DNA of 64,000 nt from a phage. The stretch lies in NCBI GenBank assembly GCA_032986305.1, contig GCA_032986305.1_3672.1, one strand, 5' to 3'. A program made the position numbers and the translations under genes. Of the stretch, positions 5,164 through 62,838 are shown in pieces. The stretch's first letter is position 1. Each line of letters begins with the position of its first letter. The notes under the pieces were generated by a model. That model saw nothing but the letters and a program-made list of their open reading frames with translations, ran no database searches and was not told the DNA's origin.

Positions 5164-5316
5164 TTTAGGTATGCTTAGTAGATAACGGTAGCCAATTGAA
5201 TAAGTGTTTTCAATTTGCACCTACATATACCCTGATGTATGCACTGTGCAACCTAGCCACACCACACAGTGGTGCTGATCGGGGCCTCGTTATGAGTGAA
5301 CTGGAGAGTATGAAAA

Positions 5317-38853: not shown

Positions 38854-39066
38854 ATGATCAACACACATGTATCTGAAGAGACATCCAAAGGGGTGACCAT
38901 CTGTCACTTGGCTGAGCCAGTGCAAGAGGAAAACTTCGATTCTGAAGATTCTCCATCTTCGCTACAGGTAGATCCTGAGGCTGATGACCTGACGTGGGAG
39001 GACATCGTAGATATCTGGTTCTCTATTATGCCTGAGCACGAAGAGTTCAGGGGTGGTAGACTATGA
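38854..39066 (+). CDS. hypothetical acidic protein
   Basis: 70 aa; preferred over antisense ORF 38584..38925. Confidence 0.35.
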   Translation: MINTHVSEETSKGVTICHLAEPVQEENFDSEDSPSSLQVDPEADDLTWEDIVDIWFSIMPEHEEFRGGRL

Positions 39067-39187
39067 AGCACCGAGCCCACACAGGTTCCTCATGCTAAAG
39101 CATGGCCTGAAGAGGCAAACGTGCATAATTCCTGTGCATTGGAACGTATGAAACCCTGTTCACACTCTCATTTCCAGAGGAGATTTC

Positions 39188-39403
39188 ATGAAGATAGAAA
39201 TATTTGGTGGAGCTGACAACACTCGTGGCCTGATTTACCTTGAATTCGATGAATCATACCTGCCAGAGGTGTTAAATATAAACTCTGTTGCTGAGGCTTT
39301 GGGAGTAAACCCTAAAGAACTCCACTCTTGTGCTGAGATCGATGGTTGGGAAGAGACCATGAACATTGATTTCAGTGAAGTAGAGGATGAACCGCTGGAC
39401 TGA
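39188..39403 (+). CDS. hypothetical protein (MKIEI small paralog family)
   Basis: MKIEIFGGADNT..., RBS AGAGGAGA. Confidence 0.45.
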   Translation: MKIEIFGGADNTRGLIYLEFDESYLPEVLNINSVAEALGVNPKELHSCAEIDGWEETMNIDFSEVEDEPLD

Positions 39404-40985: not shown

Positions 40986-41045
40986 AAAACAATTAACAAG
41001 ATAACAATTGACAAGCTAACAGCCAACAAGCTGACAATTAACAGG
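40986..41045. repeat. four tandem 15-bp iteron-like direct repeats
   Basis: AACAATTAACAAG / ATAACAATTGACAAG / CTAACAGCCAACAAG / CTGACAATTAACAGG. Confidence 0.6.
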
Positions 41046-41056
41046 TTAATAATATA

Positions 41057-41229
41057 TGACATAATATAAAAGCAGGGCAACTATTAGCAGATCTATAGTT
41101 GCCTTGCTTGTTATGTCATGATTAACTAAATACAAGGCAACTATGATCTGATTAATAGTTTGCAGACAAACTATCACGGGGGTGATTGTTACTGCTTTTA
41201 TATTATGTCGCGACTCCGTCGCGACATGT
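41057..41229. repeat. nested inverted repeats (cruciform-capable locus)
   Basis: 19-bp arms TGACATAATATAAAAGCAG and CTGCTTTTATATTATGTCA; inner hairpin GGCAACTAT...ATAGTTGCC; 10-bp palindrome ATGTCGCGAC..GTCGCGACAT. Confidence 0.6.
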
Positions 41230-41854
41230 CATTCGTTTGCATAGTTGCCTTATTGTTACGGATAAAATAATTGTATTGTTAATTATTTCTTATCTTTCTC
41301 TTAGTCATCTAATGATTCCAGTCAGTATAGTAATGTACAGTAAACATTAGACGACTAAATATTTCTCTGATTATAGTAACCTATCGTGACAATTTCGGAC
41401 TGTTTACGAAAAATGTTGACACCTGGGCAGGTTTATGTTATGCAGTTTGTACGAATAATTATTTTATACAGGTATTGACTATTCCGTTATTCTGTGGTTG
41501 GAATAAATACTTTGCAGGCTATAGAATGATGTTCGTACGTGAATTCTGAGATCTGTCGGCTATAGTTACACCCGATTTTTCACGTAGGACACGCTTTTTG
41601 GTTTGTGTAAGTGTATGACTTATAAGGGTTTTTAATTGTTGACAGTATGCTGAAAATGTGCATCAGGTTAAATTTTGTGCAATAGCTGCATTACGTGCGT
41701 TTTTGGAAGGAAAAACGTGTAAAAATGACCCTGCTACCACAAGATGAAAGATTATGCAATAGTTATTTTATATGTATATTTGTACAGTGTGCGGGATTAA
41801 TGGCTCGTCAATTATTCCACTTGCCAGGTAGGGCCGTTTATGGTAGGAAAAGAG

Positions 41855-41883
41855 CAAACAAAAAGAAAGGGGCCTAAGCCCCT
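41855..41883 (-). terminator. intrinsic terminator for leftward gene block
   Basis: AGGGGC-cuaa-GCCCCU hairpin; on minus strand followed by UUCUUUUUGUUUG. Confidence 0.6.
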
Positions 41884-41895
41884 TGATAATGTTTA

Positions 41896-42243
41896 TTATT
41901 TGTTTCTCATCCAGCTTTCCCAAGCTGCCTGATAATCTGCCTCACTGCGGCGGATCTCTTCTTGCTCTTCAAGCCGGATCTCTTCTTCCAGGTACCCCAG
42001 GATATCAGCCTTTTTGGTCTGGCGTAACATCCAATCATCTTTTTTACGAGTAAAGATCTTGTACGCTTTCTCGCAAACCTCCTTTTTACTACCTTTTTGG
42101 ACTTCAATAACTTTGTAGGCCATGTACTGAACTAGTTTGAGCTGATCAAGGCGTTTCATGATGTTTTCCTCTTTATGGGGTTCTGGTTTGGTGGGCCTTT
42201 TGGCCCGTGTCATTATCTTATTACTTACGGCGGCAAAATTCAA
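41896..42243 (-). CDS. hypothetical protein
   Basis: 115 aa, basic/charged. Confidence 0.45.
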   Translation of the reverse strand: MNFAAVSNKIMTRAKRPTKPEPHKEENIMKRLDQLKLVQYMAYKVIEVQKGSKKEVCEKAYKIFTRKKDDWMLRQTKKADILGYLEEEIRLEEQEEIRRSEADYQAAWESWMRNK

Positions 42244-42493
42244 GTGTTTTTAATTGATAATCTTCTTCAGCCTGAAGTACAACCGCTTCAATCATTTCGT
42301 TGGCATTGTTGAAGCCATACCCTTGAGCGAACTCATCCGCGCCACCTTTGTGATCATGTTCTGCGTTCATCGCTTCCACAAAATGGAATTCAAGATTATT
42401 GAGGTAAGGGCTTGATGTTCCGTCCTCTTTTTCGATGAGATCCCAGATAGCATTAAAACGTGATTCAACTTTTTGATTAATCCAGCTTGACAT
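42221..42493 (-). CDS. hypothetical protein
   Basis: 90 aa; own promoter and RBS AGAGGAAA. Confidence 0.45.
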   Translation of the reverse strand: MSSWINQKVESRFNAIWDLIEKEDGTSSPYLNNLEFHFVEAMNAEHDHKGGADEFAQGYGFNNANEMIEAVVLQAEEDYQLKTLEFCRRK

Positions 42494-42547
42494 AATGTTT
42501 TCCTCTCTTCTGGTTGTTGTGTGGGCACTTTTGCCCCTTCAAGATAA

Positions 42548-42576
42548 ATGTTACCTAACCACCTGGCAGATGTCAA
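42548..42576 (-). promoter_or_regulatory. sigma70-like promoter (minus strand)
   Basis: Minus-strand TTGACA - 17 nt - TAACAT, followed by GC hairpin then RBS. Confidence 0.45.
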
Positions 42577-42696
42577 CTGTTTTTATAGTTTTTATATAAC
42601 GGGCACCCCCGGTGATTGTCTCCCCCCCGTCGCCAGGTGCCACCCGTGAGATAAGTATAACAAAAAACAGGACCATTGCAAGCCCTGTTTATTATC

Positions 42697-42831
42697 TTAA
42701 AACCAGTTGCCAACCGTTTCCAATAGATCACTGACTATCAGGACAATACTGATCAGCACATACCTAACCATAAAGGGAAAGATCGCCAACATTGCCGCCA
42801 CGATCCCTATGGTGATAATTATCTTTCTCAT
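42697..42831 (-). CDS. small membrane peptide (44 aa)
   Basis: MRKIIITIGIVAAMLAIFPFMV...; co-oriented, below ORF-track cut-off. Confidence 0.3.
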   Translation of the reverse strand: MRKIIITIGIVAAMLAIFPFMVRYVLISIVLIVSDLLETVGNWF

Positions 42832-42921
42832 GTTTTTGTATTCTCTTTCTGTTGCGTTCAAGGCGGTCACCGCCGCCTGCTTATGCTTTGTTAGTTAATG
42901 GGGCGTACGGTATAGATTAAA

Positions 42922-43146
42922 CTATGCTGTACGCTCAACTATAACAACGGCTTGAGGGATCTCACCTTCCACCACTATCAAGGCTTTTTTCTGCGTGATA
43001 GATATCTTTACCCGCTTCAGCGTGGCGGTAAAATCTTTCATTTCGTCACGTGGTGTTTTAGTGCAATACCAGATCTCAGGCTTACCTATTTGCAAGCCGC
43101 GTAAAAATTCCGTTTTGCCTGTTTTGTTCGTGATCATTTGTTTCAC
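42922..43146 (-). CDS. hypothetical protein
   Basis: 74 aa ORF. Confidence 0.4.
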   Translation of the reverse strand: MKQMITNKTGKTEFLRGLQIGKPEIWYCTKTPRDEMKDFTATLKRVKISITQKKALIVVEGEIPQAVVIVERTA

Positions 43147-43324
43147 CTTACCCGATACCGTGGGGAGATAGGATCATGTTAGCCATAGTTGCAACCACTC
43201 CAACCGATAATGCCATGCCAACTACTACAACCGTGAAAATTTTTTCTAACATGATTCCACCCTCATTAATGGGCGTTGCCTTATTGCCCCGCCCTATGTC
43301 GTACACTTTTCTTCTGATCCTCTG

Positions 43325-43588
43325 TTAGCATACGATAGCGATCACGCCGCCACAAATAAAAGGTAAATCAAAACGGTCTACCTTGCAAGCTATTTTTAAA
43401 CGAAAGGCAACATAAAAGAAAAGTTGCAAACAATCGATCATTGTGTTAGCTGTTGAAACACTGCCAGCATTAAACACCACCCCGCCCACGGCGTTAAACG
43501 TTGCGTTACTCACGAAAGCGAAAAGGCAAGCGATCACGGTGGCGATCATGATGTTGCGTTTTGTCAATCTGTAAATGATGTTTTTCAT
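43325..43588 (-). CDS. small membrane protein
   Basis: 87 aa with hydrophobic segments. Confidence 0.4.
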   Translation of the reverse strand: MKNIIYRLTKRNIMIATVIACLFAFVSNATFNAVGGVVFNAGSVSTANTMIDCLQLFFYVAFRLKIACKVDRFDLPFICGGVIAIVC

Positions 43589-43658
43589 TCTGTCATGTTG
43601 GCGGCATCGCTGCCGCCTTATGTATTATGCTTTGTAAGATGGCTGTTGTCAAACTATT

Positions 43659-43838
43659 TTAACGATAATCATCGTACGCTTTATTAACCTGGCGGATATA
43701 ACATTCAAAAGCCAGATCAATGGATTTATATTCACGGGTATATTCACCATAGGAAACTACATACATTTCTATAGCTTCCTCATATGCGAGGAGAATAGAA
43801 TCCAAGCCTACGATCTCAGTCTTTGCAATAATAGCCAT
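43659..43838 (-). CDS. hypothetical protein (59 aa)
   Basis: MAIIAKTEIVGLD...; N-terminus resembles that of 44203..44487 product. Confidence 0.35.
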   Translation of the reverse strand: MAIIAKTEIVGLDSILLAYEEAIEMYVVSYGEYTREYKSIDLAFECYIRQVNKAYDDYR

Positions 43839-43913
43839 GATTTTTTATCCTCTTTGTGGTTGGTGGGGCTTGTTGCCCCCTTGATTTATATATTACAGTC
43901 TTATATGGTCATG

Positions 43914-44147
43914 TCAACTATTTTCAAAAAATTTTTCTGCTGTGATATTCTTCCCGGTAGGGTTCGCTACTTTCAAAATTTTATCATGCACTGGACGCCC
44001 AAAAGAATAAGCGCCGTACACAGTAAACCAATAATCGCCGTCAGGTTGTACTATTACTGCCGCATATGGTACGCCTTTTTCGTTTTTGCTGACAGAATAG
44101 ATCACGTTGCCATTAATAGCCTCGGCGCGTTTAATTTGTTCCATCAT
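43914..44147 (-). CDS. hypothetical protein
   Basis: 77 aa ORF. Confidence 0.4.
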   Translation of the reverse strand: MMEQIKRAEAINGNVIYSVSKNEKGVPYAAVIVQPDGDYWFTVYGAYSFGRPVHDKILKVANPTGKNITAEKFFENS

Positions 44148-44202
44148 GATGATTTGCCTCTCTTTATTTTCATAATTGGGGGCCTTTTCGGCCCCGCCAG
44201 GT

Positions 44203-44487
44203 TTATTTATTGATAGCGTGCAGCGGGAAAGGTACGCCAGGTTGATAGATAACTTTTACAACCTCATCAGGGCAAAAGAAGTTGCAGAACTCACCGCAAT
44301 AGGCCTCATCCTCTTTCAACTCTTCATCAACATACTCAAAAAAGTAGTCGATGCTTGGATAATCTTGCCCTGGGTTATAGTCAACCATTGTCAGGACTAG
44401 TTCAAGATCGTTGCGTAGGATATGCATACCCGCTTTTAAGTATTTTGCTTCCATTTCTACTACATCGCCAACGGTAACAATAGCCAT
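44203..44487 (-). CDS. hypothetical protein
   Basis: 94 aa acidic, MAIVTVGDVVEM... Confidence 0.4.
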   Translation of the reverse strand: MAIVTVGDVVEMEAKYLKAGMHILRNDLELVLTMVDYNPGQDYPSIDYFFEYVDEELKEDEAYCGEFCNFFCPDEVVKVIYQPGVPFPLHAINK

Positions 44488-44712
44488 GATTTTAACTCCT
44501 ATCTATCCGGTTAATGATTGGGGGCCGCCCCCCTGACACGTCCTATTATCCATATTGTAGGGCTTGATGCAAGTACTTCTTTAAAAATTTTTTAAGCGCC
44601 TTGGGGGCCGCTGTAGCGCCAAAATAATAAAGGCCATGCAACCGCATAGCCTTTATGTGATTATATCGCTGCAGGCCCTGCCATGGGCCTTATTTTGCAT
44701 CATTTGCTGGAA

Positions 44713-45012
44713 TTATTCAGAGAAAACATCGTTCACAATAGCGATCACAATGCCGCCCACCTTGTCACGGTCAACAATGCACAAATCACCATAGATCATG
44801 TGGTAGTCTGGATGATCTTTCACGGAATAGTCAATGAGTGTTTTCTTATCGTCCAGCTTCGTAACTTCCATTCTCATAACGATATGAGAATCATCAAAGG
44901 CATTATTGCGAAAAGTCATAGCCTGACCGCCAGGGCACCCGGTGATCTCCACTTCCACACCGTCTACGATCTGACCATCAAAGAAATAAAGATTATTGGC
45001 GGGTATAAACAT
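44713..45012 (-). CDS. hypothetical protein
   Basis: Start set to downstream ATG because upstream codons AAAGGAG read as the RBS. Confidence 0.4.
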   Translation of the reverse strand: MFIPANNLYFFDGQIVDGVEVEITGCPGGQAMTFRNNAFDDSHIVMRMEVTKLDDKKTLIDYSVKDHPDYHMIYGDLCIVDRDKVGGIVIAIVNDVFSE

Positions 45013-45060
45013 GATCATTACTCCTTTTTGCACTGATTATTTTAACAGGGTTTAAATTTA

Positions 45061-45101
45061 CTTTATTGATGGCCTTGGAGTCAAGGCCATCTAAAAATAA
45101 A
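45061..45101 (-). promoter_or_regulatory. 45-bp repeated promoter/operator element, copy 1
   Basis: Minus strand: AT-rich, GATGGCCTTGACTCCAAGGCCATC palindrome containing TTGACT, then TAAACT; near-identical copies at 48780 and 49371. Confidence 0.5.
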
Positions 45102-45103
45102 TT

Positions 45104-45304
45104 TTACAGGCCTACAATCTCTTTGATTCGTTTTACTGCTGCCTCAGCGCCTTGAGGGTAGAAATTATGATAACCAATCACGCGGGTAATACTGATCGCC
45201 GCTTGGTGGTCCTCGTAGTCGCCTTTGAATATTTCTTGACCATCAACCAGCACAGCAATTTTTTCTTCTTTTTTGAAGTTAATAACGCGGATATTGTTGC
45301 TCAT
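45104..45304 (-). CDS. hypothetical protein
   Basis: 66 aa ORF. Confidence 0.4.
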   Translation of the reverse strand: MSNNIRVINFKKEEKIAVLVDGQEIFKGDYEDHQAAISITRVIGYHNFYPQGAEAAVKRIKEIVGL

Positions 45305-45361
45305 TTTGTTTCTCCTTTGGAACTTTGTCTGTGTGGTGGGGAGTGTCTCCCCGTTGATTGT

Positions 45362-45390
45362 TATTATCCATATTCAGGACCGGATTGCAA
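45362..45390 (-). promoter_or_regulatory. sigma70-like promoter (minus strand)
   Basis: TTGCAA - 17 nt - ATAATA, then hairpin GGGGAGACACTCCCC and RBS. Confidence 0.4.
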
Positions 45391-45589
45391 CACCCCGGAA
45401 GAAAAATTTTTTTGAAAAAAGTTAGGCCCCCAGGGATCGGGGGCCGTTATCAGGTGCGTACAGCGATAAAATACATCCCTACGCCTAACAATATTTCAAG
45501 GGCGATAATCTCCAGCCATACCATAACACGGCGCGCCTTATCGGTGCGGGGCTTATCCTTGGGTGTCATCGTCTCCCCCTTTCCTCCTG

Positions 45590-45811
45590 TTAGTAGTGAC
45601 GTGGTTTACAATGGTCCCCAGGAGTACTATCGCCACGCACATTACGAGAAAAATTATTTCTTCCGTTGTTCGGTCCATTGTTATAAAACCTCTCAAGATC
45701 AGGTCTAAAAGTAAATCTTTCGTTATTGAATCCGTCACGCCAGGCGGCTGGCTTCAAATCTTCACTAAATGGATTAATTAACGTGGCATTATTTAAACGG
45801 TTGGCCCACAT
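45590..45811 (-). CDS. hypothetical Asn-rich protein
   Basis: ATG after RBS GAGGA; 73 aa. Confidence 0.3.
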   Translation of the reverse strand: MWANRLNNATLINPFSEDLKPAAWRDGFNNERFTFRPDLERFYNNGPNNGRNNFSRNVRGDSTPGDHCKPRHY

Positions 45812-46160
45812 ATTTTCTATTCCTCTCAAATAGGCGATCCGCCTCAGTTAAACATATCTCATGGGCGTGATCTCTGGTTTTAGCTTCATCGAAAACCTGT
45901 TGTGCAAGGCTGCAACGTAGGGAGACTGGAAGATCACTATAATAGGCGTTGACAAACGTTTGAGCGTCGTACAGGTCTGAAAATACTTTACCCTTTCTAT
46001 TATTTCCCTTGTCAACAATTGCAAGGATAACCAATACAATAGTTGCAACCACCCCCAGGAAAATAGATATAATAAACCATAAAAAGGCGGATCTCCCCAT
46101 CTTGCCAGCGATCCAGGCGTTAAACAAGGCAACCAATATAGCCAAAATAATAAATTCCAT
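45789..46160 (-). CDS. membrane protein (two TM helices)
   Basis: MEFIILAILVALFNAWIAG...FLWFIISIFLGVVATIVLVILAIV. Confidence 0.45.
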   Translation of the reverse strand: MEFIILAILVALFNAWIAGKMGRSAFLWFIISIFLGVVATIVLVILAIVDKGNNRKGKVFSDLYDAQTFVNAYYSDLPVSLRCSLAQQVFDEAKTRDHAHEICLTEADRLFERNRKYVGQPFK

Positions 46161-46224
46161 TCTATGTACCTCTTTTACAGTTCTGATTAACAATAAGGCG
46201 GCAAATATGCCGCCTGTTACCTGA

Positions 46225-46605
46225 TTAAAAATTATCGCCGTAAATCTTTCCGCTTTCTACCCATACCACCACGCGAGGCATACTATCCCACACGTCTTGT
46301 TTTAGATTGAGCGCGTGCAATTCTTCGGTGGTGCTCATACCGGGCACGGGCTGATTGTATACTGCAAAACGACCGCCTGCATAATCATAGGCCAGGGTTA
46401 AATCACACTGGATCATCTTTTTGATCATGGCATTAAGCATGGCGTTAGCCGCATATTGATCACGTTTTAAAGGCAACTCTTTGATTAGTTTGCGATAGTT
46501 TTCGATATGGTCGCACACTGTTTCACGAGGAAGATCTTTCATATCCTCGCGAAAGGTAACCAGGTTAAACATAACGGTGTCAATGGCCTTGGTAGTGTTT
46601 TTCAT
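46225..46605 (-). CDS. hypothetical protein
   Basis: Start at ATG after RBS AGAGGA. Confidence 0.4.
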   Translation of the reverse strand: MKNTTKAIDTVMFNLVTFREDMKDLPRETVCDHIENYRKLIKELPLKRDQYAANAMLNAMIKKMIQCDLTLAYDYAGGRFAVYNQPVPGMSTTEELHALNLKQDVWDSMPRVVVWVESGKIYGDNF

Positions 46606-46694
46606 AATGTTATCCTCTCTGTTTTGTGTTGGGCAAGTCATCTCGCCCCTTGAGTTTTAATATAGCAGGTTTTTAGATTATTGCAACACTTTAT

Positions 46695-47318
46695 TTATGA
46701 AAAACTCATCTCCCCATATTCATCCACATCAAACCGCCAATCATTGGCTTCAATAAGGCCGATCAGGTTTTCGGTAGTAAACTGTTCAAGATAGGCCCCC
46801 TCCAGGTCTACGTAAACCTTGCGGGATAGCTCCCGTACCGTCTCGGTGATCAGCTCTTCCAGCTCTTCAACTTTATCCTCTTGCTTGGTGGTCAGGTCTA
46901 GCCAATTAGTATCGATGCACCCTCCTATTGTGTTTTCGTGGTGATAATGGCTAAACGGGATACGTTCAACACTAGCTGATAACTCGCCATCGTGCATTGT
47001 GCCGAACAAGTGACGAATTGATCGGAACTTGGTCAGGGCCTTGACTTTACGCAAGAATTTTTCTAAATCCACGTTTTCAGCACTGATTGACGCGCCATCG
47101 CCTTGACACCAAAAGCCGGACCAACGTACTTCGGTATCTTCAAGGCCGTACTCTGGAAAGACATATTCTTTATAGTGTTCAATTACGCTTTCTGCAAAAA
47201 AATTATCCCCGCTGTGTTCTTCTCTTTCGCGTACCATTTCAATGGCTTTTTCTTTTTGTTCGTCGGTCAGCACATCGAAAGATAAATTGTAACCTGTGGT
47301 AATGTTAACGGTGGTCAT
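46695..47318 (-). CDS. hypothetical acidic protein
   Basis: 207 aa, strongly acidic; consensus promoter upstream. Confidence 0.5.
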   Translation of the reverse strand: MTTVNITTGYNLSFDVLTDEQKEKAIEMVREREEHSGDNFFAESVIEHYKEYVFPEYGLEDTEVRWSGFWCQGDGASISAENVDLEKFLRKVKALTKFRSIRHLFGTMHDGELSASVERIPFSHYHHENTIGGCIDTNWLDLTTKQEDKVEELEELITETVRELSRKVYVDLEGAYLEQFTTENLIGLIEANDWRFDVDEYGEMSFS

Positions 47319-47346
47319 GATATTTTCTCCTGTTTTCTTTGTTAGT

Positions 47347-47365
47347 GGCGGGAAGTTTTCCCGCC
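47347..47365 (-). promoter_or_regulatory. 5' UTR stem-loop
   Basis: GGCGGGAA-gtt-TTCCCGCC between promoter and RBS of 46695..47318. Confidence 0.45.
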
Positions 47366-47375
47366 TGTGTGTTTA

Positions 47376-47403
47376 ATTATACTTATTGAGATTTACTTGT
47401 CAA
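47376..47403 (-). promoter_or_regulatory. sigma70 consensus promoter (minus strand)
   Basis: TTGACA - 16 nt - TATAAT; -35 abuts stop of upstream gene. Confidence 0.6.
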
Positions 47404-47653
47404 CACTATTTTTTAAATTATTGTGGCGCAAAATGTTTAAAATCTCTTCAACGTCATCAACACGGCGGCAATTTTTAAACGCTACCAATTGCCCCATGAT
47501 TTTAATCACTGGGCGGCCTTGCCAGTGCCCTTGGAGAAAGCGCGCCTTGACTTTATCGGTGGAACTATCACGCCACCAAATAGCCTTGTTGTTGCAGTAG
47601 TAAAAATTATTCAGGATAACATCAACTTTATCAAAATTTTTTAATTTACGCAT
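47393..47653 (-). CDS. hypothetical protein
   Basis: 86 aa ORF. Confidence 0.4.
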   Translation of the reverse strand: MRKLKNFDKVDVILNNFYYCNNKAIWWRDSSTDKVKARFLQGHWQGRPVIKIMGQLVAFKNCRRVDDVEEILNILRHNNLKNSVDK

Positions 47654-47871
47654 GGCGTTTACTCCTTCCTCTCTTTGATGTGGTTAGTATAGCTAACCTG
47701 TTGACGATGTCAATGATATTTTTAACGCCATAAAACGGCCCTGGGCGATGTTTTCAGGTTAAAGGGGGCGATTGCATAGGTGGGGGCCTTTTTGGCGCTT
47801 ACAGGGCCAACCAGGGGCGCTATTCGTATGATAGAAATAAAAAGCCCCGCACAATGGCGGGGCGTTGGTTG

Positions 47872-48069
47872 TTATTTGTCTTTATGGCGGTATCGTTCTG
47901 CCTGTCGTTCACGTTCCAAAAGTAGGCCGGGCAATTTACGATCATAATGATTACGCCAGATCTTCCCAAACCTTTTTGGCTTATTCAGTTTATTGTTACG
48001 CTGGCGGCGTTCTGGCAGCTCTTCGGAATCATGAGGGCGCTTTACAATTTTCTCGAAATTAATTTTCAT
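47872..48069 (-). CDS. hypothetical basic protein
   Basis: 65 aa, Arg/Lys-rich. Confidence 0.35.
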   Translation of the reverse strand: MKINFEKIVKRPHDSEELPERRQRNNKLNKPKRFGKIWRNHYDRKLPGLLLERERQAERYRHKDK

Positions 48070-48413
48070 ATATTCCCCCCCTTGCTAACTTCAATATTGG
48101 CCTGAATAGCTCGGATACGGCGCTTTATAACTTCCTGATCTGTGTGGTCGTATCCCCAAAAGTCTACAATTTTTGCGCCCCCCGCCTCCAGGCGGTATAG
48201 TGTTTCCTGCATTTTGTAAGCCGGGATCGGGCGCGGTGTTACTTGGTCACCTTCTTTATTTTTATACTTTATAATATAATCTTCGTTATCGTTGAATGCC
48301 CAAAATGGATATTCTGCAAGGGCGGTACTTCCTCTTTCCTTTTTATCCTGGATCTTATTTACAATTAAAGCCGTAGCAATAGCGCCAATAATAAAACTAG
48401 CCCCGCTAATCAT
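48066..48413 (-). CDS. hypothetical protein with N-terminal TM helix
   Basis: MISGASFIIGAIATALIV... Confidence 0.4.
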   Translation of the reverse strand: MISGASFIIGAIATALIVNKIQDKKERGSTALAEYPFWAFNDNEDYIIKYKNKEGDQVTPRPIPAYKMQETLYRLEAGGAKIVDFWGYDHTDQEVIKRRIRAIQANIEVSKGGNI

Positions 48414-48489
48414 GTGTACTTTCTCCTTTCATGGTGTTAATAAATTATCTTTATAGATGGCCCTGCAACCAGGACCACCGAAAAAATAA

Positions 48490-48735
48490 CTATTTCACAA
48501 TGCCTACAAAACAGATCCCGCCTTCACCTATGTAAGCAATATCGGTAACTTTATAATTTGTCAAGATCTGTTTATTTAGTTCATTAATAAAATCGGTCAT
48601 TGCGTTGGTGTAGTTGTCTTCCATATCTAAGGCATAATCCCAGGCGTAAACCTTTTTACGTCCGAAGCCTTTTACCATGATACGGGCGCTTTTGGTGTTG
48701 GTGGGCGCATAATATTTTGTGATTAGTGCTGCCAT
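48490..48735 (-). CDS. hypothetical protein
   Basis: 81 aa; RBS GAGGAG; preceded by 45-bp element copy 2. Confidence 0.4.
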   Translation of the reverse strand: MAALITKYYAPTNTKSARIMVKGFGRKKVYAWDYALDMEDNYTNAMTDFINELNKQILTNYKVTDIAYIGEGGICFVGIVK

Positions 48736-48779
48736 GGTTTTAACTCCTCATTAGTTCAGTGTTAACAGTGTAAAGTTTA

Positions 48780-48820
48780 CTTTATTGATGGCCCTGGAGT
48801 CAAGGCCATCTAAAAATAAA
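48780..48820 (-). promoter_or_regulatory. 45-bp repeated promoter/operator element, copy 2
   Basis: Near-identical to 45061..45101. Confidence 0.5.
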
Positions 48821-48822
48821 TT

Positions 48823-49134
48823 TTACTCGTTTTCTTCCAGCTCTGTCTGCAATTCCTGGTATTCTTCATCGTCCTCAATATCCAGGCTGTCGATGTAGTC
48901 GCTAAATCCGCAGCGGTAAGCGATAGGATCTAACTCCTTGAGGATACGCGACGGAAGAAAAGAAATGTTTCCGATCATAATTTCGCCGTAGATCTCGTCT
49001 AGCCATTCGTCATAGTTTTCGTCGTACTTGTCCTCGTCGATTTCAAAGTTATCGATCTTGTTCTCAAGGTCTGCGATCTGTTTTTTCAGCGCGGCGATCT
49101 GCATAGCTTTTTCTGCGGCGGTCATAGTAGTCAT
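48823..49134 (-). CDS. hypothetical acidic protein
   Basis: 103 aa, coiled-coil-like N-terminus. Confidence 0.4.
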   Translation of the reverse strand: MTTMTAAEKAMQIAALKKQIADLENKIDNFEIDEDKYDENYDEWLDEIYGEIMIGNISFLPSRILKELDPIAYRCGFSDYIDSLDIEDDEEYQELQTELEENE

Positions 49135-49370
49135 GGTGTTTTCTCCTTTTGTGTGTTCTGGGAAGTTTTCCCGTTTACGTGTTTAAGTATACCGATTTGG
49201 GTTAGCTTGTCAATTAAAAATTTAAGAAAAATTTTGCAAAACTGTTGGCGCTACTCATTAACATTTGCGCCAGGATGTAACCGACAACGCAAACGATAAT
49301 AGTTACCTTTGTGTATTGGCGTGTAGTGCTCATCTTAAAGCCCCCTTTTCGCTTAGTTGAGACTAGTTTA

Positions 49371-49411
49371 CTTTATTGATGGCCCTGGAGTCAAGGCCAT
49401 CTAAAAATAAA
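49371..49411 (-). promoter_or_regulatory. 45-bp repeated promoter/operator element, copy 3
   Basis: Near-identical to 45061..45101; upstream of a 39-aa membrane ORF. Confidence 0.5.
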
Positions 49412-49412
49412 C

Positions 49413-49817
49413 TTAATAAGTTTTCAGTACTTTACCGTCCAACCTGTCAAGCTGGATCTCAATAGCTGCAGAAAACCTATTGTACACCACGTCGCCCATA
49501 GAATCCAACCAATCTATGACGTTATATACCTGCTCTTTATTCTTACAGGTCCGGATCCGTTTCATGATGTAAGCCGGATCAATATTGGTACTCTCGTTGG
49601 TGTTCCCCTGTACCTGGTTTGCCGTATTAGTTACATCTTTAATGGCCTTTACCACCACCTGGAATGGCTTTAAGGTGCCTTTTGCGTTCATCTCACGCGC
49701 TTTTGCGGCGCGGTTGTTATATGTTACACAACGGCGGCAAATATTGATCAAATGCATGTCAATAATTTTTTCATCGTTTGCCAACTCGTTCATGATGCGG
49801 CGTACGTTCTTATTCAT
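49413..49817 (-). CDS. hypothetical protein
   Basis: 134 aa ORF. Confidence 0.4.
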   Translation of the reverse strand: MNKNVRRIMNELANDEKIIDMHLINICRRCVTYNNRAAKAREMNAKGTLKPFQVVVKAIKDVTNTANQVQGNTNESTNIDPAYIMKRIRTCKNKEQVYNVIDWLDSMGDVVYNRFSAAIEIQLDRLDGKVLKTY

Positions 49818-49899
49818 GGTCTTTTTCCTTTATGTTGGCGGGAAACATTCCCGCCTTTTGTGCCCAGTTTACTTGAATTTTGCAGCGTGTCAACAATTT

Positions 49900-50298
49900 T
49901 TATTCATGGGCGCATGTTACAATGTGCTTTTTATAGCCCAGGCGGTCAGCAAGTGCCGACAAAAACTCTTCTTCGTAGATCCAGCCGTCGGCAGTGATCC
50001 CCATAGTATTTAATGCGCTCTCAAGTGCTGCGTTGGCCTTATCATAACCGTGACCGCTCGCCTTGCCGCCAGTATAGCCGTACTTATTGTTCTTGTTGTC
50101 GTGTATCCAAAAAACGCAGTAGTAAGTGTTCCCGCTGGCGGCGGCATAGTACCGGATCTCCGCTACTTCGTGCAAATTATTATCATCGTCCAGGCCAACC
50201 AGATTATAAGCCTTGTAAAATCCACGATCACGGCGGCAATTTTTAACATCAGAAAAAGAGAAGTCGGCATTGTCAAAATTAAAGGTTGTGGTTTTCAT
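49900..50298 (-). CDS. hypothetical protein
   Basis: 132 aa ORF. Confidence 0.4.
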   Translation of the reverse strand: MKTTTFNFDNADFSFSDVKNCRRDRGFYKAYNLVGLDDDNNLHEVAEIRYYAAASGNTYYCVFWIHDNKNNKYGYTGGKASGHGYDKANAALESALNTMGITADGWIYEEEFLSALADRLGYKKHIVTCAHE

Positions 50299-50362
50299 GA
50301 TTTTATCCTCTCAGTGTCTTTTTTGATTTCAGTATATTTTGTGTCAGGCCATATGTCAATAC

Positions 50363-50560
50363 TTATTTTTTATTAAACCAGTGGTTGATCTGGCCTTTTG
50401 TCAGGGCGCAACGATTAAGTTGGTGCCGTGTATAGCTCTGACCGCGACGGAATTTATAAAGGCCTTGCCCGTTGTTGATGGTTACATCCACCCGGCAAAC
50501 CATTTGATCGGTGACCACCTGGCGAGTGTTGCGACGTACTTTGATTCCGTAGGCGTTCAT
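50363..50560 (-). CDS. hypothetical protein
   Basis: 65 aa ORF. Confidence 0.35.
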   Translation of the reverse strand: MNAYGIKVRRNTRQVVTDQMVCRVDVTINNGQGLYKFRRGQSYTRHQLNRCALTKGQINHWFNKK

Positions 50561-50645
50561 GATTTTTTATCCTCTCTGTTAATTGGTGTGGTGTTGTTCA
50601 CCTTGCGAGGATAAGAATAACAATAACTGTACGAGCTGTCAACCA

Positions 50646-50822
50646 TCAGTTAAAATTATTTTTTGGGTAGAATTCTCCAGCCGCCGCCCCTGCCAGGTTA
50701 ACCATCATTTTTTCGTACTCTTCTTTATGTTCCAACGCTCCCGCCATAGCCTTTTCAACCAGGGCGATAGCCTCAGCGTCATTAATAGCTACATTTTCCA
50801 GGGGGATCATGTTACCTTTCAT
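50646..50822 (-). CDS. hypothetical protein (58 aa)
   Basis: RBS GGAGGT then ATG; MKGNMIPLENVAIND... Confidence 0.35.
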   Translation of the reverse strand: MKGNMIPLENVAINDAEAIALVEKAMAGALEHKEEYEKMMVNLAGAAAGEFYPKNNFN

Positions 50823-50869
50823 TTTTGTACCTCCTCTTCAATTGTTACCTATCCTATAGCATAGGCCCA

Positions 50870-51838
50870 CCAGGTTTGCAAGCCTTCATTCTCTCCTACC
50901 TGGTCAGTTAGGTCCTACCAGGCTGGCCCCGCCAGGTTGCAGCGGTTAGCGCATCAGGTTAGAAAATTTTTTTGAAAAGTGTTGACAGCGGCCCAGCCAG
51001 GTGGCACAATATACCTATCGAAAGGACGGCAGGCACCGGTGACGGGGGAGACAACCACCGGGGATGGGCGCTGCATAAAATGAGAACGGTTATCATTATC
51101 CTTTAAAAATTTATGCAAAAATCCTTGCTTTCTTTGTCCTGTGTGATACTATAATAACAAGCCGGGGCAACAGGGGCCGGGAGACAATCACCGGGCCTGC
51201 CCGTTATTCTGCAAACGAGAATGATTATCATTCAAAATTCTAAATGAGAACTCCTCGCATTTAATAAATTTAATTAGCATGCTAATTACCCTCCGTAACA
51301 ATTTCCTATAAAACAGTATCCCATAAAATATTCCCATACAGAAATTTTAAAAATCCATTTCTGAAAACGAAAAATCGATTTCGTCCCCAAAAATTTCAGG
51401 TCGAGATCCGGAACGATTTCTAGAAAATCCGATTTAGAAAACGAAAAACAGATCGAGTACTGAGAAATTTATCGAGAAAAATTTTCAGAAAATTCAATCT
51501 TTGAAACGAAAAACAGATCGAGTACCTGGAAAGCTGCACTGCAACTTCAAGATAGTGGTTAGATTATTACCATAGAAGGTCAAGGGTAAGTGGAGGAAGT
51601 TCTAGTAGAAGGATGTGAGCATGTGTGGGAAATCTGTAATGGTGGCCTGAAATATGGTGCAAACGATAGGATGAGTGATTCAGCTTGTCGCGCCTACTCT
51701 GAAAAAATCCATTTTAGTTTTCGATCCATTTTCTGATTTTCTAAGGATTTTAAAATATCCGGCCCGGTGAAATATCAAAAGGAGGAAATCCATTTTAGAA
51801 ATCCCCCTTATACTTGATATGCCAGGAATTTTCAAGTA
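50870..51838. other. non-coding repeat-rich region
   Basis: No ORF of 60 aa or more; two paralogous promoter-hairpin units at about 50980-51240; direct repeats AAATCCATTT (x5) and GAAAACGAAAAACAGATCGAGTAC (x2). Confidence 0.5.
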
Positions 51839-52168
51839 TCAGCTGTCTTTGTTTTTAGGTTTGTACATGCGCAGAGGTATGGTCTTTGTAACATTCCATT
51901 TCCTCAACCCTTCCCAGCTCCAGTTGTGGGCGTGATACCCGGTTATGCATGCACTGCTGGCGTGATCATAAGCATAAGAGAACGCTATGTGCACCAGGTG
52001 GGGCCAGTCCTTCCACGGCTGTGGACCGTAAGCCTTTCTCCAACACCGACACAAACTAATTGTCTCAAGAATAGGGAGAATAACAATTCCATATACCACC
52101 ACCAGAATGGTCAGTGCAATGATTGTCAGGAACACATACCCTGCAGTTGAAATGATGATCTCTGTCAT
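51839..52168 (-). CDS. membrane protein
   Basis: N-terminal long hydrophobic helix. Confidence 0.4.
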   Translation of the reverse strand: MTEIIISTAGYVFLTIIALTILVVVYGIVILPILETISLCRCWRKAYGPQPWKDWPHLVHIAFSYAYDHASSACITGYHAHNWSWEGLRKWNVTKTIPLRMYKPKNKDS

Positions 52169-52368
52169 TTGTCGTCCCCTTTCTTACGAATATAGATGTG
52201 AGAGCCTGCCTGTATATAAATTTCTCGACCATCCTCTGCAAAGATATGAAATACACGATCACCTTCGTACTCGATACGAGATATCTTCATAATGGTCTTT
52301 CCACCTGGGGTACGGATCTCGTCCCCCACAGCGATGTTCCATGCAGATTTAAGCTTAAACATCTGCAC
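52165..52368 (-). CDS. hypothetical protein
   Basis: 67 aa, ATGA overlap. Confidence 0.4.
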   Translation of the reverse strand: MQMFKLKSAWNIAVGDEIRTPGGKTIMKISRIEYEGDRVFHIFAEDGREIYIQAGSHIYIRKKGDDK

Positions 52369-52600
52369 CCTCCTTTGGGAACTTGAACTCTGGCATAGCC
52401 ATATACGCTACAACAGGGTTGTGATCAAAGTAGAACTGACCGTTAATTATCCCGGTTTTGTCCACATAGTTACCAGATCCTGCAAGAACAACCTCACAAG
52501 CTCCGAAATCTACATTGCCATCCTCATCAGCCATGGCTACGATATACTTTCCAAGAGGCATGTTTTTAACGCCGTCTACAAATGTCCACCCTTTGCTCAT
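52355..52600 (-). CDS. hypothetical protein
   Basis: 81 aa ORF. Confidence 0.4.
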   Translation of the reverse strand: MSKGWTFVDGVKNMPLGKYIVAMADEDGNVDFGACEVVLAGSGNYVDKTGIINGQFYFDHNPVVAYMAMPEFKFPKEGADV

Positions 52601-52620
52601 ACTTTATCTCCTGCGCTTTC

Positions 52621-52953
52621 TTAAGGTAACCAGTAAACAATCTCGCCTTTCAGCTTCATGTCGTTTCCAACATAAATTTCCCAGCCATCCATCTTAGCAA
52701 CTGTAGGCCCAAAGTCATCCGCACCCCTTACCTCTTTCCAGGCTCCGTAGTCAGGTTGCCAGATATAGAATCCACCTTCTTTGTCCCATGCTCCGTACAC
52801 TACGTTTAACAGGTTTCCCATTGCAACAATGGTGGGCCGTGGGAATAATACATCTACAGATGCGCCACAATTTCGAGTATCTTTTAAGTTGCAATCCCAA
52901 AAGATGTCTGCCAGTGTGGCGGCAATAGCTTTACGTCTTTCCAATGTTACCAT
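52621..52953 (-). CDS. hypothetical protein
   Basis: 110 aa ORF. Confidence 0.4.
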   Translation of the reverse strand: MVTLERRKAIAATLADIFWDCNLKDTRNCGASVDVLFPRPTIVAMGNLLNVVYGAWDKEGGFYIWQPDYGAWKEVRGADDFGPTVAKMDGWEIYVGNDMKLKGEIVYWLP

Positions 52954-52963
52954 GGCACGATAC

Positions 52964-53155
52964 TCACTTGTTGTTAATAAGTTCTAAAACTTTCTGTCTT
53001 ACTTTGTCAAGGTCTGTTGATTCAAAAACTGTGCGATATCCCCAACTTTGCCCATAAGAGTGACTGCAATCCCCGTAGCACCATTGCTCAATTTGATAGT
53101 ATTCAAGGAATGGGTGCTGCCTGACTATGATACCGTCTCGATTAAAAATTACCAT
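52964..53155 (-). CDS. hypothetical protein
   Basis: 63 aa ORF. Confidence 0.35.
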   Translation of the reverse strand: MVIFNRDGIIVRQHPFLEYYQIEQWCYGDCSHSYGQSWGYRTVFESTDLDKVRQKVLELINNK

Positions 53156-60138: not shown

Positions 60139-60414
60139 CAATAGTTCAGGTAGGTCGTTAAGCTACCCCGCACCATTACGTGCATAGCCATACGTTTTCA
60201 CGTAGGATCGGACCATCTCATATTCCTATGATAAGCAACCACAGGAATCCTCCCATTTCGACCGCACTTGCTGGTCTACTTCCTTTCGGAATGGCCTCTG
60301 AGCGTTCGCTCTTTTGAGCGCTTCGTTGCGGATTACCTTGCCATAAGGTTTAGGCTTCCCGCAGTTAAAGAGGTTATTCGACATAGATTACTCTATGAAG
60401 CCACAATGTTATTT
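60139..60414 (-). mobile_element. group I-type intron in DNA polymerase gene (ORF-less, about 276 nt)
   Basis: Separates ...IIYYH from DEYQLQV at motif C; exon 1 ends in U, intron ends in G. Confidence 0.5.
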
Positions 60415-62838
60415 ATGGTAATAAATAATACGACGAACACCTTCATCGTACCACCCACGCTTCACCATTTGGTGGTGCATGAGTATCCCAACTAAGTCAC
60501 ACAGCGATGCACCACCATTCTGTTGGTATGCATTAAGTAAAGAGTGTTTAGATCGGGTCCAGATGGCATGACCATCAAAAGAGTAGATAAACTTCTTACC
60601 CGTTGCTTCCCAGAATTTCTCCAGATCCTCTTTACGCCCCTTAAGACCAGGGTTGGCATCCCAAAGTGCATCGATTACCCTTTGTCCCAACTCTGGAGAG
60701 ATGTCCAGCATATCTGCAACTTTATCTTTTTGTGCCCCGTACATAACCCCATACGTGATAGGTTTACCGTCGTTACGGGACACCTCTCTGCCTGCTACTT
60801 TTGTATATGCCTCAGCATTGTTTTGGTGTGCGTCTCCGTTACTTACAACATCGTAATACAGGCCGTTGTCGAACTCAAAGGCACCCCAAGCCCCGATAAG
60901 CTGCTCTAAGTTGGACCCGTCGATACCGATCTCAAAGTATCCTGGAGGAACACCCCACAAGCTACGCATCTCTTTACCCATAACCACTTTAGGAGAGGGT
61001 TTAGGCATGTTTGCACAAATACTGTGTTTCTGTCTGGAAGTGTTTGTTAATCCAGAGCTTTTAGCAGGAAGCTTATGGTCAATCTTCAAGCGTGGGTGAT
61101 TAAGAAGACCAGTATCAACCTTATCCTCCTTGATCGGATCAAGGACCGATCTGCGGTTTCGCAATGATAACCACAAGACGATATCTTTAGCCATCTCTCC
61201 GTTCAATTTTTCAAGATTCGGACATAGGTGTCCAAACGTATCTTTCAGTTGCGGAGAAGTAATAAGTGCCCTAGCTTTTCTACGTATTTTCCTGAATACT
61301 TCCTTTTTAATCCTTTCGGAGTTAGGAAAGCTTCGGAACTTGTGCACAGTTGTCTGGAACTTAGCATCAGTTTTGTTCCAGAAGTTGATAATTAGGTCAC
61401 AATACTCTGACTCCAAAAGCTCGTCCATATATGCATATACTCGTGCATCAACATCTGCATCAGGTAAAGCTTTCTTCTTGCTGTCTTTAGTTACATCCTT
61501 AGTTCTCCACATTGTCGGAAGCCAGCCAGCACTGATCAGGTATCGCTTAATGTCGTCCTGGTTGCTGATTTTCATAGGTATCTTGCAGTCCGGCATTCGC
61601 TTCTGCTGTAGATCACTTATTGCCTGATCCATCAACTCTTTAGGTAAAGGGTGTGGTGTGGAAGTGCCCTTAATATAGCCTCTCAAGAAATCAGCCATCT
61701 TATCGGGGTCTTTGCATCCCATCTCTTCACACCATTTTATCCCCATCTTGCTGACATCTCCTGTAGAGGTAAATGCTCTCTTAGGCGGGGCTTTGAACTC
61801 TAAAGCGCTCATGTCTACAGGATATCCAAGCTTATCTTTTAACCATTTCCAACCATTATTAGAGATTGTCCCGTCTTGGTTAAACGGCTTTTCAGGGAAC
61901 TTGGGCCGCTGAGACATTGACAGCTCTTTTAAAGGCAGTTGTGGTTCAACACGATCAGCGATTTCTTTCATCCACGCATCGCAACGGTCACGTAAAGCAA
62001 TAGCTCCATCTATGTCGAAATATACGCCCTGACGGGCCTGCAGCTCCATCAGGAAGTGCTGCAGCATACCTCGGCGCAATGCGTTCTTCCAGGTGATCTT
62101 CTTGAACCCTTTTGGCTTCTCTTTGGCAGGATCGTACATAAAGTTCTGCATGTCAGATTTGCCGTAGAATACACCTTTTGATTCCGCTACCAGCTCTTTC
62201 CAGAGCAACTCCTGGATGATAACGTCCTCGAATACACGATCCACATACTTCCACAACGGAAGATCGCGCCAGTCATCAATTTGAACTTTCTGGTTACCAA
62301 GGGCGTAGCCCCATGCCATAAGGCCGTGAGGACCAACAGGCTGCATTTTCTTAGTAACCGGGTTGAATACAGCGTCCGGACAACCTTTTGGTAAAGGGCG
62401 ATCAGGCCACAAGATTCGGCTCATCGCCAACGTATCAAACAGGTTAACCTGGTGGTCGTTGATAGTCCCCATACATTTAGGATCACGGAACATATCAAAA
62501 TGAATACCGGATAATCTCTCCATCAGCATAAAGTCATAACTATAGCAGTTATGGCAGTTCAAAGCTGTTGGTGACCAGTCGGAATTGCCTGTAAGCCAAC
62601 CTTCCAACTCCGAAAAATCTGCTATGCGAACTTCAAAATCTTTATAAAGAGCTTTCTTTGCCAGAATAAAGTTCTTAGCCTTCTCTATATCCTCCTCGGA
62701 GTAGTGTGTGCGGTCATTTAGAGGGAGGAACAGCATAAAACGGTTCTTATTCAGCTCTTTAAACAGGCCGCAGTGATAATAAAGATCTGGGTCTTCCAAA
62801 AGCCCGGAGGCCTCAAAATCGAAGCTATACATGCTCAT
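60415..62838 (-). CDS. DNA polymerase (family A, T7 gp5-like), exon 1
   Basis: N-terminal exo FDFEASGLLEDPDLYYHCG like T7 VSDIEANALLESVTKFHCG; motif A GIDGSNLEQL; motif B RNDGKPITYGVMYG. Confidence 0.8.

Follow-up and report, generated by a model that had tools for sequence, protein, structure and literature searches.

This study concerns a gene-free locus in a 64,000-nucleotide stretch of phage DNA (GenBank assembly GCA_032986305.1, contig GCA_032986305.1_3672.1; called the window below), where promoters, hairpins, palindromes of the Fur-box type and iterons follow each other on the + strand. The locus fills the gap at 50823-51838 between two leftward genes, 50646-50822 and 51839-52168. It holds no open reading frame (ORF) of 60 aa or more, the largest having 54 aa, and its units run rightward, against the genes on both sides; in both respects the first-pass annotation of this DNA was right. 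The proteins of the flanking genes gave no match in a Pfam scan, and in a PHROG scan all of them fell into families of unknown function. The 1.4 kb around the locus are 93-97% identical to the best-matching records of Vequintavirus (rV5-like) coliphages, and there are 113 phage records with a coverage of the locus of 80% or more. Judged by its sequence, the window is a Vequintavirus genome.

In the window, the genes are on the + strand as far as ~39 kb; from ~42 kb onwards they are on the minus strand. Vequintaviruses have direct terminal repeats of 458-459 bp (PMC7471380, PMC6563267). The annotated 459-bp repeat_region of phage Gotham (MT682716) maps with 95% identity to 40363-40821, and because of this the window is seen to span the right genome end, one copy of the terminal repeat with the physical ends, and the left genome end. 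The locus lies 10.5-11.5 kb from the left end, which corresponds to 7.6-8.4% of the ~137 kb genome.

Promoter 1 (50961-51010, + strand) consists of TTGACA at 50982-50987, a 17-nt spacer and a TG-extended CACAAT at 51005-51010. It agrees with the consensus at 10 of 12 positions and is the top + strand promoter match in 50000-52500. An A/T tract, AGAAAATTTTTTTGAAAAG (50961-50979), precedes it, which we take to resemble the UP-element consensus. Conservation was assessed as the fraction of variable positions among seven Vequintaviruses; in these relatives the -35 hexamer of promoter 1 is invariant and the upstream tract stays A/T-rich. Promoter 2 (51125-51155, + strand) has TTGCTT at 51125, a 19-nt spacer and TATAAT at 51150, and a single one of its 33 positions (51125-51157; fraction 0.03) varies. 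Its homolog, promoter B, is found at the same position in Phapecoctavirus and Seunavirus in the form TTGCTT/TTGATC-16 nt-TATTMT.

Promoter 1 overlaps a stretch (50864-51006, + strand) with three copies of GGCCCnSCCAGGTKGCA at a spacing of 61-65 nt, the third copy being the promoter 1 spacer. This is the most variable part of the locus, with a fraction of 0.44, and 48 bp of it are missing in phage BP9. Probably it is dispensable or consists of promoter remnants. Promoter-less copies of the spacer motif were seen upstream of promoter 1 at 50864 and 50925. The early promoters of this phage group have a GC-rich spacer with CCWGG, a Dcm site, as in TTGACAgcggcccaGCCAGGTGGCACAAT (50982-51010, and 42548-42576 on the minus strand).

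Each of the two promoters is followed by a hairpin of a family which we call RNA B. Unit 2, its main copy (51158-51209, + strand), pairs GGGCA/UGCCC in its outer stem and CCGG/CCGG in its inner stem, has the loop GAGACAAUCA, and folds with -27.4 kcal/mol (z = -2.4). Unit 1 (51029-51074, + strand) is a divergent paralog with GGGAGACAACCACCGGG in its loop and 3' arm; its fold has -21.9 kcal/mol (z = -1.7), and 3 of its 46 positions (0.07) vary. For the family a covariance model was built from six sequences. On this model, R1, unit 2 scores 58 bits, unit 2 itself being among the training sequences, and unit 1 gives a partial match (51042-51066, 11.8 bits, E = 0.63). The 64 kb contain exactly three matches, one of them this partial one; the third is unit 3 at 42597-42648 on the minus strand (24.5 bits, E = 1.4e-4). 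All three share the 17-mer GGGAGACAAYCACCGGG (51046, 51179 and, on the minus strand, 42608-42624), for which 0.13 occurrences are expected in the window. The two paralogous units described by the first-pass annotation are thus real, and the copy at 42.6 kb had been overlooked. Homologs of the main copy scored 25-74 bits at no fewer than 20 related loci.

Unit 3 has the same orientation as the genes. It sits right after a terminator-like hairpin and a promoter (TTGCAA-17 nt-TATACT), and downstream of it come another promoter and then the final two genes ahead of the terminus. Its counterparts in other genera are second RNA B copies located 7-8 kb from the main copy on the opposite strand, each behind a terminator-like hairpin and a promoter. 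They are followed by GCTATTC..AATGAGAATTACTCTCAA, a degenerate Fur-like box, and then apparently coding sequence. The module of promoter, hairpin and Fur box therefore serves as a leader of coding units as well as the head of a gene-free island.

Single-sequence folds of 15 RNA B homologs gave an outer stem (for example AUAGCGGG/CCCGCUAU), an inner stem of the CCGG/CCGG type and a loop with GAGACAAnCA as its last letters. Between homologs the stems vary, but the sequence of the loop is conserved. In an alignment of 23 distinct sequences, fitted to the covariance model, 82.9% of the cells pair, compared with 36-51% after sliding of the partners. In six pairs both sides change, compared with a mean of 3.0 in shuffles, and none of 500 shuffles reached this number. 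The pairing is mostly strand-specific: because many pairs are G-U, the fold is better kept on the + strand. This favours transcripts from the + strand, i. e. an element that would act as RNA. The hairpins were also considered as minus-strand terminators and rejected as such; no U-run follows them, and on that strand the G-U pairs become C-A mismatches.

A coding role of the RNA B block does not hold either, because the reading frames differ between genera. Peptides of 18-32 aa from a leaderless AUG, conceivable in some relatives, were rejected: the conserved block is read in differing frames, and AUA stands in place of the AUG in many genomes. Over the units a minus-strand ORF of 92 aa is annotated in some records, but in the window it is not intact. 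Searches against Rfam gave only weak, chance-level matches for 39000-53000 (up to E = 5), far below the gathering score. In the locus itself the only one was snoR442 at 51658-51704 (E = 1.6), which lies outside the units, and in three relatives there was no match up to E = 1. Homology to the phiTE 'pseudo-ToxI' non-coding RNA locus was rejected as well; that locus lies between tRNA genes and terminase and shares no sequence with ours. The 64-kb window has no tRNA genes.

Behind each hairpin the first-pass annotation had noted an element AAAYGAGAAY..TTATCATT without recognising its nature. By sequence it is a Fur box. Box 1, AATGAGAACGGTTATCATT (51079-51097), agrees with 17 of the 19 columns of the 9-1-9 Fur consensus (one column N); read on the minus strand (51082) as GATAATGATAACCGTTCTC, it matches the E. 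coli 19-mer at 16 of 19 positions. One of its 19 positions varies among the seven relatives (0.05), and the change, G to A, goes toward the consensus. Box 2, AACGAGAATGATTATCATT (51214-51232), reaches 18/19, is the top site of the window and is invariant (0.00). The block around it keeps 83-88% identity out to Seunavirus, Certrevirus, Henunavirus and an Aeromonas phage. A degenerate third box, AATGAGAACTCCTCGCATT (51243-51261; 15/19), follows 29 nt after box 2. No strand is assigned to these palindromes.

When the window was scored with the consensus AATGAKAATnATTMTCATT at a threshold of 16/19, five sites were found where 0.32 are expected. All of them fall within the locus (51079, 51214) or within the terminal repeat (40372, 40488, 40506), where the scores are 16-17/19. 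Likewise, GAGAAnnnnTATCATT occurs four times (0.43 expected), at 51082 and 51217 and, in the terminal repeat, at 40491 and 40509. The first box of the terminal repeat (40372-40390) begins 10 bp from the physical left end, and it has the same position in Gotham.

In relatives, the copies of the palindrome approach the common sequence AATGAGAATnATTCTCATT, whose 7-1-7 core is TGAGAATnATTCTCA. This sequence is identical to the Fur-box consensus of Xanthomonas, AATGAgAATcATTctCATT, which was derived for Fur-regulated TonB-receptor genes (PMC1790865). Fur boxes of iron-transporter genes in E. faecalis, TGAGAATGATTCTCA, match the phage palindrome (PMC6056675), and the iron boxes of Gram-negative bacteria include the related GATAATGAGAATCATTATT (PMC10665472). 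In bacterial genomes the palindrome was searched and the adjacent ORFs of 250 aa or more were taken in order and unselected, up to the tenth. Eight of the ten belong to metal or iron uptake families (two TonB-receptor Plug, two FecCD, two siderophore-type binding proteins Peripla_BP_2, one ZnuA-family, one ZIP); the remaining two are a LysR regulator and an OprB porin.

Successive boxes are 28-29 bp apart in arrays from six other phage genomes, and the same holds for the boxes at 51214 and 51243 here. Such phasing would fit cooperative binding of a protein to DNA. The palindrome was found in at least 120 unrelated viral contigs, often arrayed, and in 712 phage records. Because of this breadth across unrelated lineages a conserved host factor is favoured over a lineage-specific phage protein. 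In a 347-kb jumbo-phage contig (L041, 1200-1300) an extended -10 promoter is followed by ..CCTGCCTGCTATTCCACTAATGAGAATGATTATCATTC, with the same junction of hairpin 3' arm and Fur box as in Hena1. This suggests that the junction moves between phage lineages or is repeatedly selected.

Beyond the boxes the DNA changes in composition, from 52-56% GC over promoters and hairpins to 28-35% over a block of three 62-nt iterons (51332-51532, + strand) with start-to-start distances of 74 and 65 nt. Each copy has the core GAAAAYCCRATTT..GAAAACGAAAAAC.GATCGAGTAC, and the iterons vary at a fraction of 0.08 of their positions. Behind the Fur boxes of Seunavirus, Mydovirus, Avunavirus, Certrevirus and Aeromonas phage 2L372X there are related iterons (GAAAAAATACG..GAAAA..TCGATCGAGAAC). 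In the same four genera and an Aeromonas phage the sub-motifs GAAAAATTTT, GAAAAYnC and GATCGAGWAC recur. Hence the linkage of Fur box and iterons is the oldest part of the module.

After a G-rich patch (51550-51650, GC skew +0.63) the locus ends in an AT-rich tail (51697-51800, + strand) with AAATCCATTTTAG at 51705 and 51786 and ATCCATTTTCTG at 51723-51734. The repeats listed by the first-pass annotation have to be corrected here. A short repeat given as fivefold, AAATCCATTT, has three exact copies (51351, 51705 and 51786), the only ones in the 64 kb, and with one mismatch allowed its count in the window is not above chance. A 24-mer given as twofold occurs exactly only at 51437; what is present twice is the 22-mer AAACGAAAAACAGATCGAGTAC (51439 and 51504). 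AAATCCATTTTATTG was found also in non-coding DNA of EC152, in the opposite orientation and across the record ends after the iterons of that phage. The EC152 record starts inside the iterons, and joining its ends is uninformative on the true termini.

The locus is conserved at least as well as its coding flanks. It is 94-97% identical in other Vequintaviruses; in one relative the locus has 96.8% and the flanks 93.8 and 95.6%, in another 94.4% compared with 92.4 and 94.8%. The variable fraction is 0.10 for unit 2 and 0.24 for the gene at 50646-50822. The first-pass annotation had made its proposal depend in part on whether the units are conserved in related genomes, and this they are, both within the genus and in other genera.

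Beyond the genus, BLAST similarity narrows to ~51164-51270, i. e. to unit 2 and the palindrome downstream of it, with 72-88% identity. Matches to this part come from Phapecoctavirus, Seunavirus, Mydovirus, Certrevirus, Henunavirus, Avunavirus and an Aeromonas Plateaulakevirus. In the related genera the island lies inside a leftward gene block as well. It starts with an optional small rightward ORF, followed by promoter A with an 'RNA A', promoter B with RNA B, one to five palindromes, a third promoter and iterons of ~65 nt. The order of promoter, RNA B, Fur box(es) and iterons is common to the first six of these genera, and the Aeromonas Plateaulakevirus keeps the part from Fur box to iterons. 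The window has neither the small rightward ORF nor RNA A; the divergent RNA B unit 1 is in their place.

RNA A is a promoter-driven RNA of ~90 nt, present in the island of other genera (L005 2360-2470, L007 2325-2430, L145 4640-4800 and ~25 further loci). A CGCC/GGCG hairpin, whose loop seems to pair with a run further downstream (CCCC/GGGG, CCAA/UUGG, CCAU/AUGG) and so suggests a pseudoknot, is accompanied by a covarying second hairpin, and the 3' AAGGUnnAUCGCCGGUAG is invariant. In Aeromonas phages a terminator-like hairpin comes after it. RNA A has no match in Rfam. In one contig (L138 ~4990-5470, IMGVR_UViG_3300026472_000003) ~600 extra nt separate promoter B, with a truncated 5' RNA B, from a complete RNA B. 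By eye the extra sequence resembles an HNH-type homing endonuclease gene, and if it is one, the insertion would be in line with RNA B as a target of high conservation.

The best explanation is that the locus is a conserved early control island without genes. From what the sequence shows, namely its elements with their order and conservation, pairing that is mostly strand-specific and a palindrome that matches Fur operators, we tentatively favour, with somewhat less than even confidence, that it serves for Fur-gated, gene-less early transcription into a cis-acting iteron block, which is probably an origin opened or primed by transcription. In this reading two tandem host-type sigma-70 promoters would fire rightward, against the leftward genes. 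Each transcript would begin with a G+C-rich stem-loop of ~45 nt of the RNA B family, which as a 5' leader could protect or mark the transcript. The transcribed DNA would cross a 19-bp Fur-box palindrome no more than ~10 nt past the stem-loop. Host Fur-Fe2+ would occupy the phased boxes, and its occupancy would determine what share of the non-coding, rightward transcription reaches the iterons. Promoter firing, Fur binding, binding-gated read-through and the iterons as an origin are what we infer here from sequence.

Origins that are activated or primed by transcription are the T7 primary origin with its tandem promoters and AT-rich region, oriF and oriG of T4, and the RNA II system of ColE1. 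The locus resembles them in having tandem promoters that face an AT-rich repeat block, and its leader is G-rich on the non-template strand. It differs from them by its host sigma-70 promoters, its iterons and the interposed Fur boxes.

Several observations weigh against the reading of Fur-gated transcription into an origin. Of the two sigma70-like promoters named by the first-pass annotation, the first stands with its 10/12 match, but the second, while present, has a spacer outside the 16-18 nt optimum and was not called by the promoter scan. The number of consensus promoters in the region (5, compared with 5.5 in shuffles) is not above chance, and the promoters are supported because they are conserved across genera, not because of their number. 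The boxes lie at ~+50 to +100 downstream of promoters 1 and 2 and not over -35/-10, the usual geometry of a repressor, and a roadblock at this distance is usually leaky. In other genera the boxes are ~70-95 nt upstream of the start of the third promoter. The boxes consistently have a G in TGAGAAT at the position where E. coli Fur prefers the T of TGATAAT, so that a different protein might be the one that binds. Unit 3 has no Fur box in the window, the box having been lost here. No + strand intrinsic terminator was found in 50000-52500, and thus none after unit 1 or unit 2.

Further such points concern RNA B and the origin. The pair statistics of RNA B come from an alignment that leans toward the covariance model to which it was fitted, and for this reason we rate the structure as supported, not proven. 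An unguided combination of MAFFT and RNAalifold did not recover the consensus GC hairpin, because the length of the loop varies, ranging from 9 to 20 nt. The structure modelling suggested by the first-pass annotation gives pairing in the fitted alignment but no consensus GC hairpin in the unguided one. A second origin, also among its proposals, has the iterons and the block of 28-35% GC in its favour. However, there are no DnaA boxes (TTWTNCACA) in the locus, the cumulative GC skew does not change at 51 kb, and scans of the flanking genes against Pfam and PHROG identified no initiator. The skew turns at ~38-40 kb, where the gene direction switches and the terminal repeat sits.

Alternatively, the units could be genes for free-standing, trans-acting small RNAs which regulate host or phage mRNAs, act as antisense RNAs or serve as decoys directed against host defence, with the Fur boxes and iterons being separate features. 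This is possible, if rather doubtful. The conserved promoters and the mostly + strand-specific structure would suit such genes, as would RNA A, a second structured RNA with covarying pairs and, in Aeromonas phages, a terminator-like hairpin behind it. The relative phiTE uses a non-coding RNA against ToxIN (PMC3475682). The homing-endonuclease-like gene in the one contig points in the same direction, since such genes typically hit highly conserved sequence. However, units 1 and 2 lack a terminator, no Rfam family matches them and no target complementarity was identified. The most conserved block consists of the hairpin 3' arm together with a DNA palindrome, and this and the 29-bp phasing of the boxes fit DNA binding. 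Moreover, the second copies are 5' leaders of protein-coding units, as expected for a cis-element. The Fur-repressed small RNAs RyhB and PrrF are likewise short structured non-coding transcripts physically linked to a Fur box, but there the Fur box lies over the promoter and the RNA has a terminator behind it, whereas in the locus the box comes after the RNA and there is no terminator.

It seems unlikely that the palindromes are operators for a dimeric protein encoded by the phage instead of host Fur. The left half-sites are consistently TGAGAAT and not the E. coli optimum TGATAAT, and the flanking genes encode small proteins of unknown function. Yet documented Fur boxes include TGAGAAT half-sites, and the same palindrome is found in T5-like phages, in the jumbo phage K64-1, in a Shewanella phage and in many GC-rich metagenomic contigs, as well as upstream of bacterial iron-uptake genes. 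Compared with bacterial Fur boxes (the E. coli 19-mer GATAATGATAATCATTATC, what we take to be the iucA site, GATAATGAGAATCATTATT, and the Xanthomonas AATGAgAATcATTctCATT), the phage sites have the same 19-bp palindrome of 9-1-9 type (core 7-1-7), which they match at 16-18 of 19 positions, and identical sequences stand upstream of TonB receptors and siderophore ABC transporters. They differ from those in being located in gene-free DNA of a strictly lytic phage, in arrays with a 29-bp phase, and 50-100 nt downstream of promoters or near a genome end; here they are known from sequence.

Replicating phage DNA could also act as a sink, titrating Fur off the chromosome and thereby de-repressing iron uptake, for example for an iron-dependent ribonucleotide reductase; promoters and hairpins would then be incidental. 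Multicopy Fur boxes do titrate Fur, which is the basis of the Fur titration assay. The genome here carries 5-6 near-consensus boxes, relatives and T5-like phages have more, and the boxes are located in non-coding DNA without overlapping a promoter. Nevertheless we regard a sink as quite unlikely. The position and phasing of the boxes relative to leader and iterons are fixed across genera, which a pure sink would not need, and in T5-like phages, which degrade the host DNA early (bioRxiv 10.1101/866236), de-repression of the host would be pointless.

Possibly RNA B is a cis-acting leader that modifies RNA polymerase, similar to put of HK022 or to the boxB-boxA leaders of lambda and rrn, and makes polymerase from selected early promoters resistant to terminators or roadblocks. 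We think this very unlikely. The copies are located directly downstream of early promoters in both directions of transcription, unit 3 comes after a terminator-like hairpin, and a conserved loop sequence on variable stems is found. The putL and putR sites of HK022 are likewise promoter-proximal in both directions. By eye, GCUAUUCUGCAA after the hairpin weakly resembles boxA, GCUCUUUAACAA (8/13), but this stretch is also within the extended Fur palindrome. Structured, promoter-proximal RNAs behind early promoters in both directions are thus common to the locus and to HK022 put and the nut-type leaders of lambda and rrn, but fold and sequence of RNA B differ from these, a single hairpin standing against the two-stem put fold. 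No Rfam family matches RNA B, and an N-like or Q-like protein was not identified.

A role in genome entry, as a counterpart of the T5 injection-stop region or of the early T7 promoters, from which host RNA polymerase pulls the DNA in, appears to be a long shot. Host Fur already present in the cell would then grip the incoming DNA at Fur-box arrays near the leading end, both in rV5-like phages and in the injection-stop region of T5-like phages, and the gene-less rightward promoters would let polymerase resume or drive the entry of the remaining 92% of the genome. The locus, at 7.6-8.4% from the left end, is close to the 7.9% of the first-step transfer in T5 (bioRxiv 10.1101/866236). Among the features examined, its promoters are the only rightward ones in a block of genes which all point to the left end. 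Like 'Repeat Region 3' of T5-like phages, the injection stop signal, the locus comprises ~1 kb of untranslated, densely repetitive DNA ~8% from the left end, is better conserved than the neighbouring ORFs and carries the same Fur-type palindromes.

In the T5-like phage EASG3 (L163, MK373799 8602-9824) the injection-stop repeat region has seven matches of at least 16/19 at four places. A perfect CAAATGAGAATCATTCTCATTTG at 9202 marks the start of the region equivalent to 'Repeat Region 3' of T5, and it is followed by DnaA boxes and several more Fur-like palindromes. The T5 literature consulted calls these sequences only 'palindromes', not Fur boxes. We also noted perfect Fur-type palindromes, several per genome, inside the terminal repeats of T5-like phages. 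The T5 region differs, however, in lying inside a 10-kb terminal repeat and in having paired DnaA boxes, whereas the rV5-like locus is outside its terminal repeat and has no such pairs. Beyond the palindromes no likeness between the two regions was noticed by eye, and homologs of DenB and A1 were not identified in most Vequintavirinae (PMC12916289).

A packaging site was among the proposals of the first-pass annotation, and the repeat-rich, non-coding sequence and the Fur-like motif in common with the terminal repeat would speak for it. That the locus is a packaging (pac/cos) site or the genome terminus can be dismissed, however, since the defined terminal repeat maps to 40363-40821, 10.5 kb away.

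A few further features of the window and of the matching records were noted. The 2.5 kb around the terminal repeat (39404-41890) have no convincing ORF; they contain short repeats of the TGTTTACA/TGTTTGCAT type, GACAY runs, AACAAGMTRACA runs and several promoter-like sites. In the rV5 genome paper a box labelled 'non-coding' may stand for this stretch. A group I catalytic intron (minus strand, 60189-60424; RF00028, 64.7 bits) is the sole Rfam match in the window that reaches the gathering score. Seventeen GenBank records which match the locus (e. g. MG065662) are labelled 'Campylobacter phage'; those listed are 96-97% identical and almost certainly are mislabelled Vequintaviruses.

Operators for host factors in phages, leader RNAs and iteron blocks are individually known; within the literature searched, their conserved combination and placement are not. 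Sites for the host transcription factors LexA, PhoB and NtcA have been described in phage genomes, and Fur sites at cargo genes of prophages. Our literature search, which covered Vequintavirus transcriptomes, small RNAs and Fur boxes in lytic phages, found nothing on the locus, the rV5 genome paper giving no more than a box marked 'non-coding'. It found no report on the RNA B or RNA A leader families either, and none in which consensus Fur boxes form a conserved and phased component of gene-free regions, early or terminal, in strictly lytic phages.

The palindromes suggest that large lytic phages may read the iron status of their host. If Fur binds them, Vequintavirinae, Stephanstirmvirinae and T5-like phages, all of them groups considered for therapy, would couple an early cis-acting step to host iron, be it the firing of an origin, early transcription or DNA entry. 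In iron status, laboratory broth is far from the iron-starved gut or a site of infection. Should the step be DNA entry, the locus would be a checkpoint of genome entry linked to iron status, and Fur, a concrete new candidate factor for the injection-stop mechanism of T5, might be the host factor that has long been sought there.

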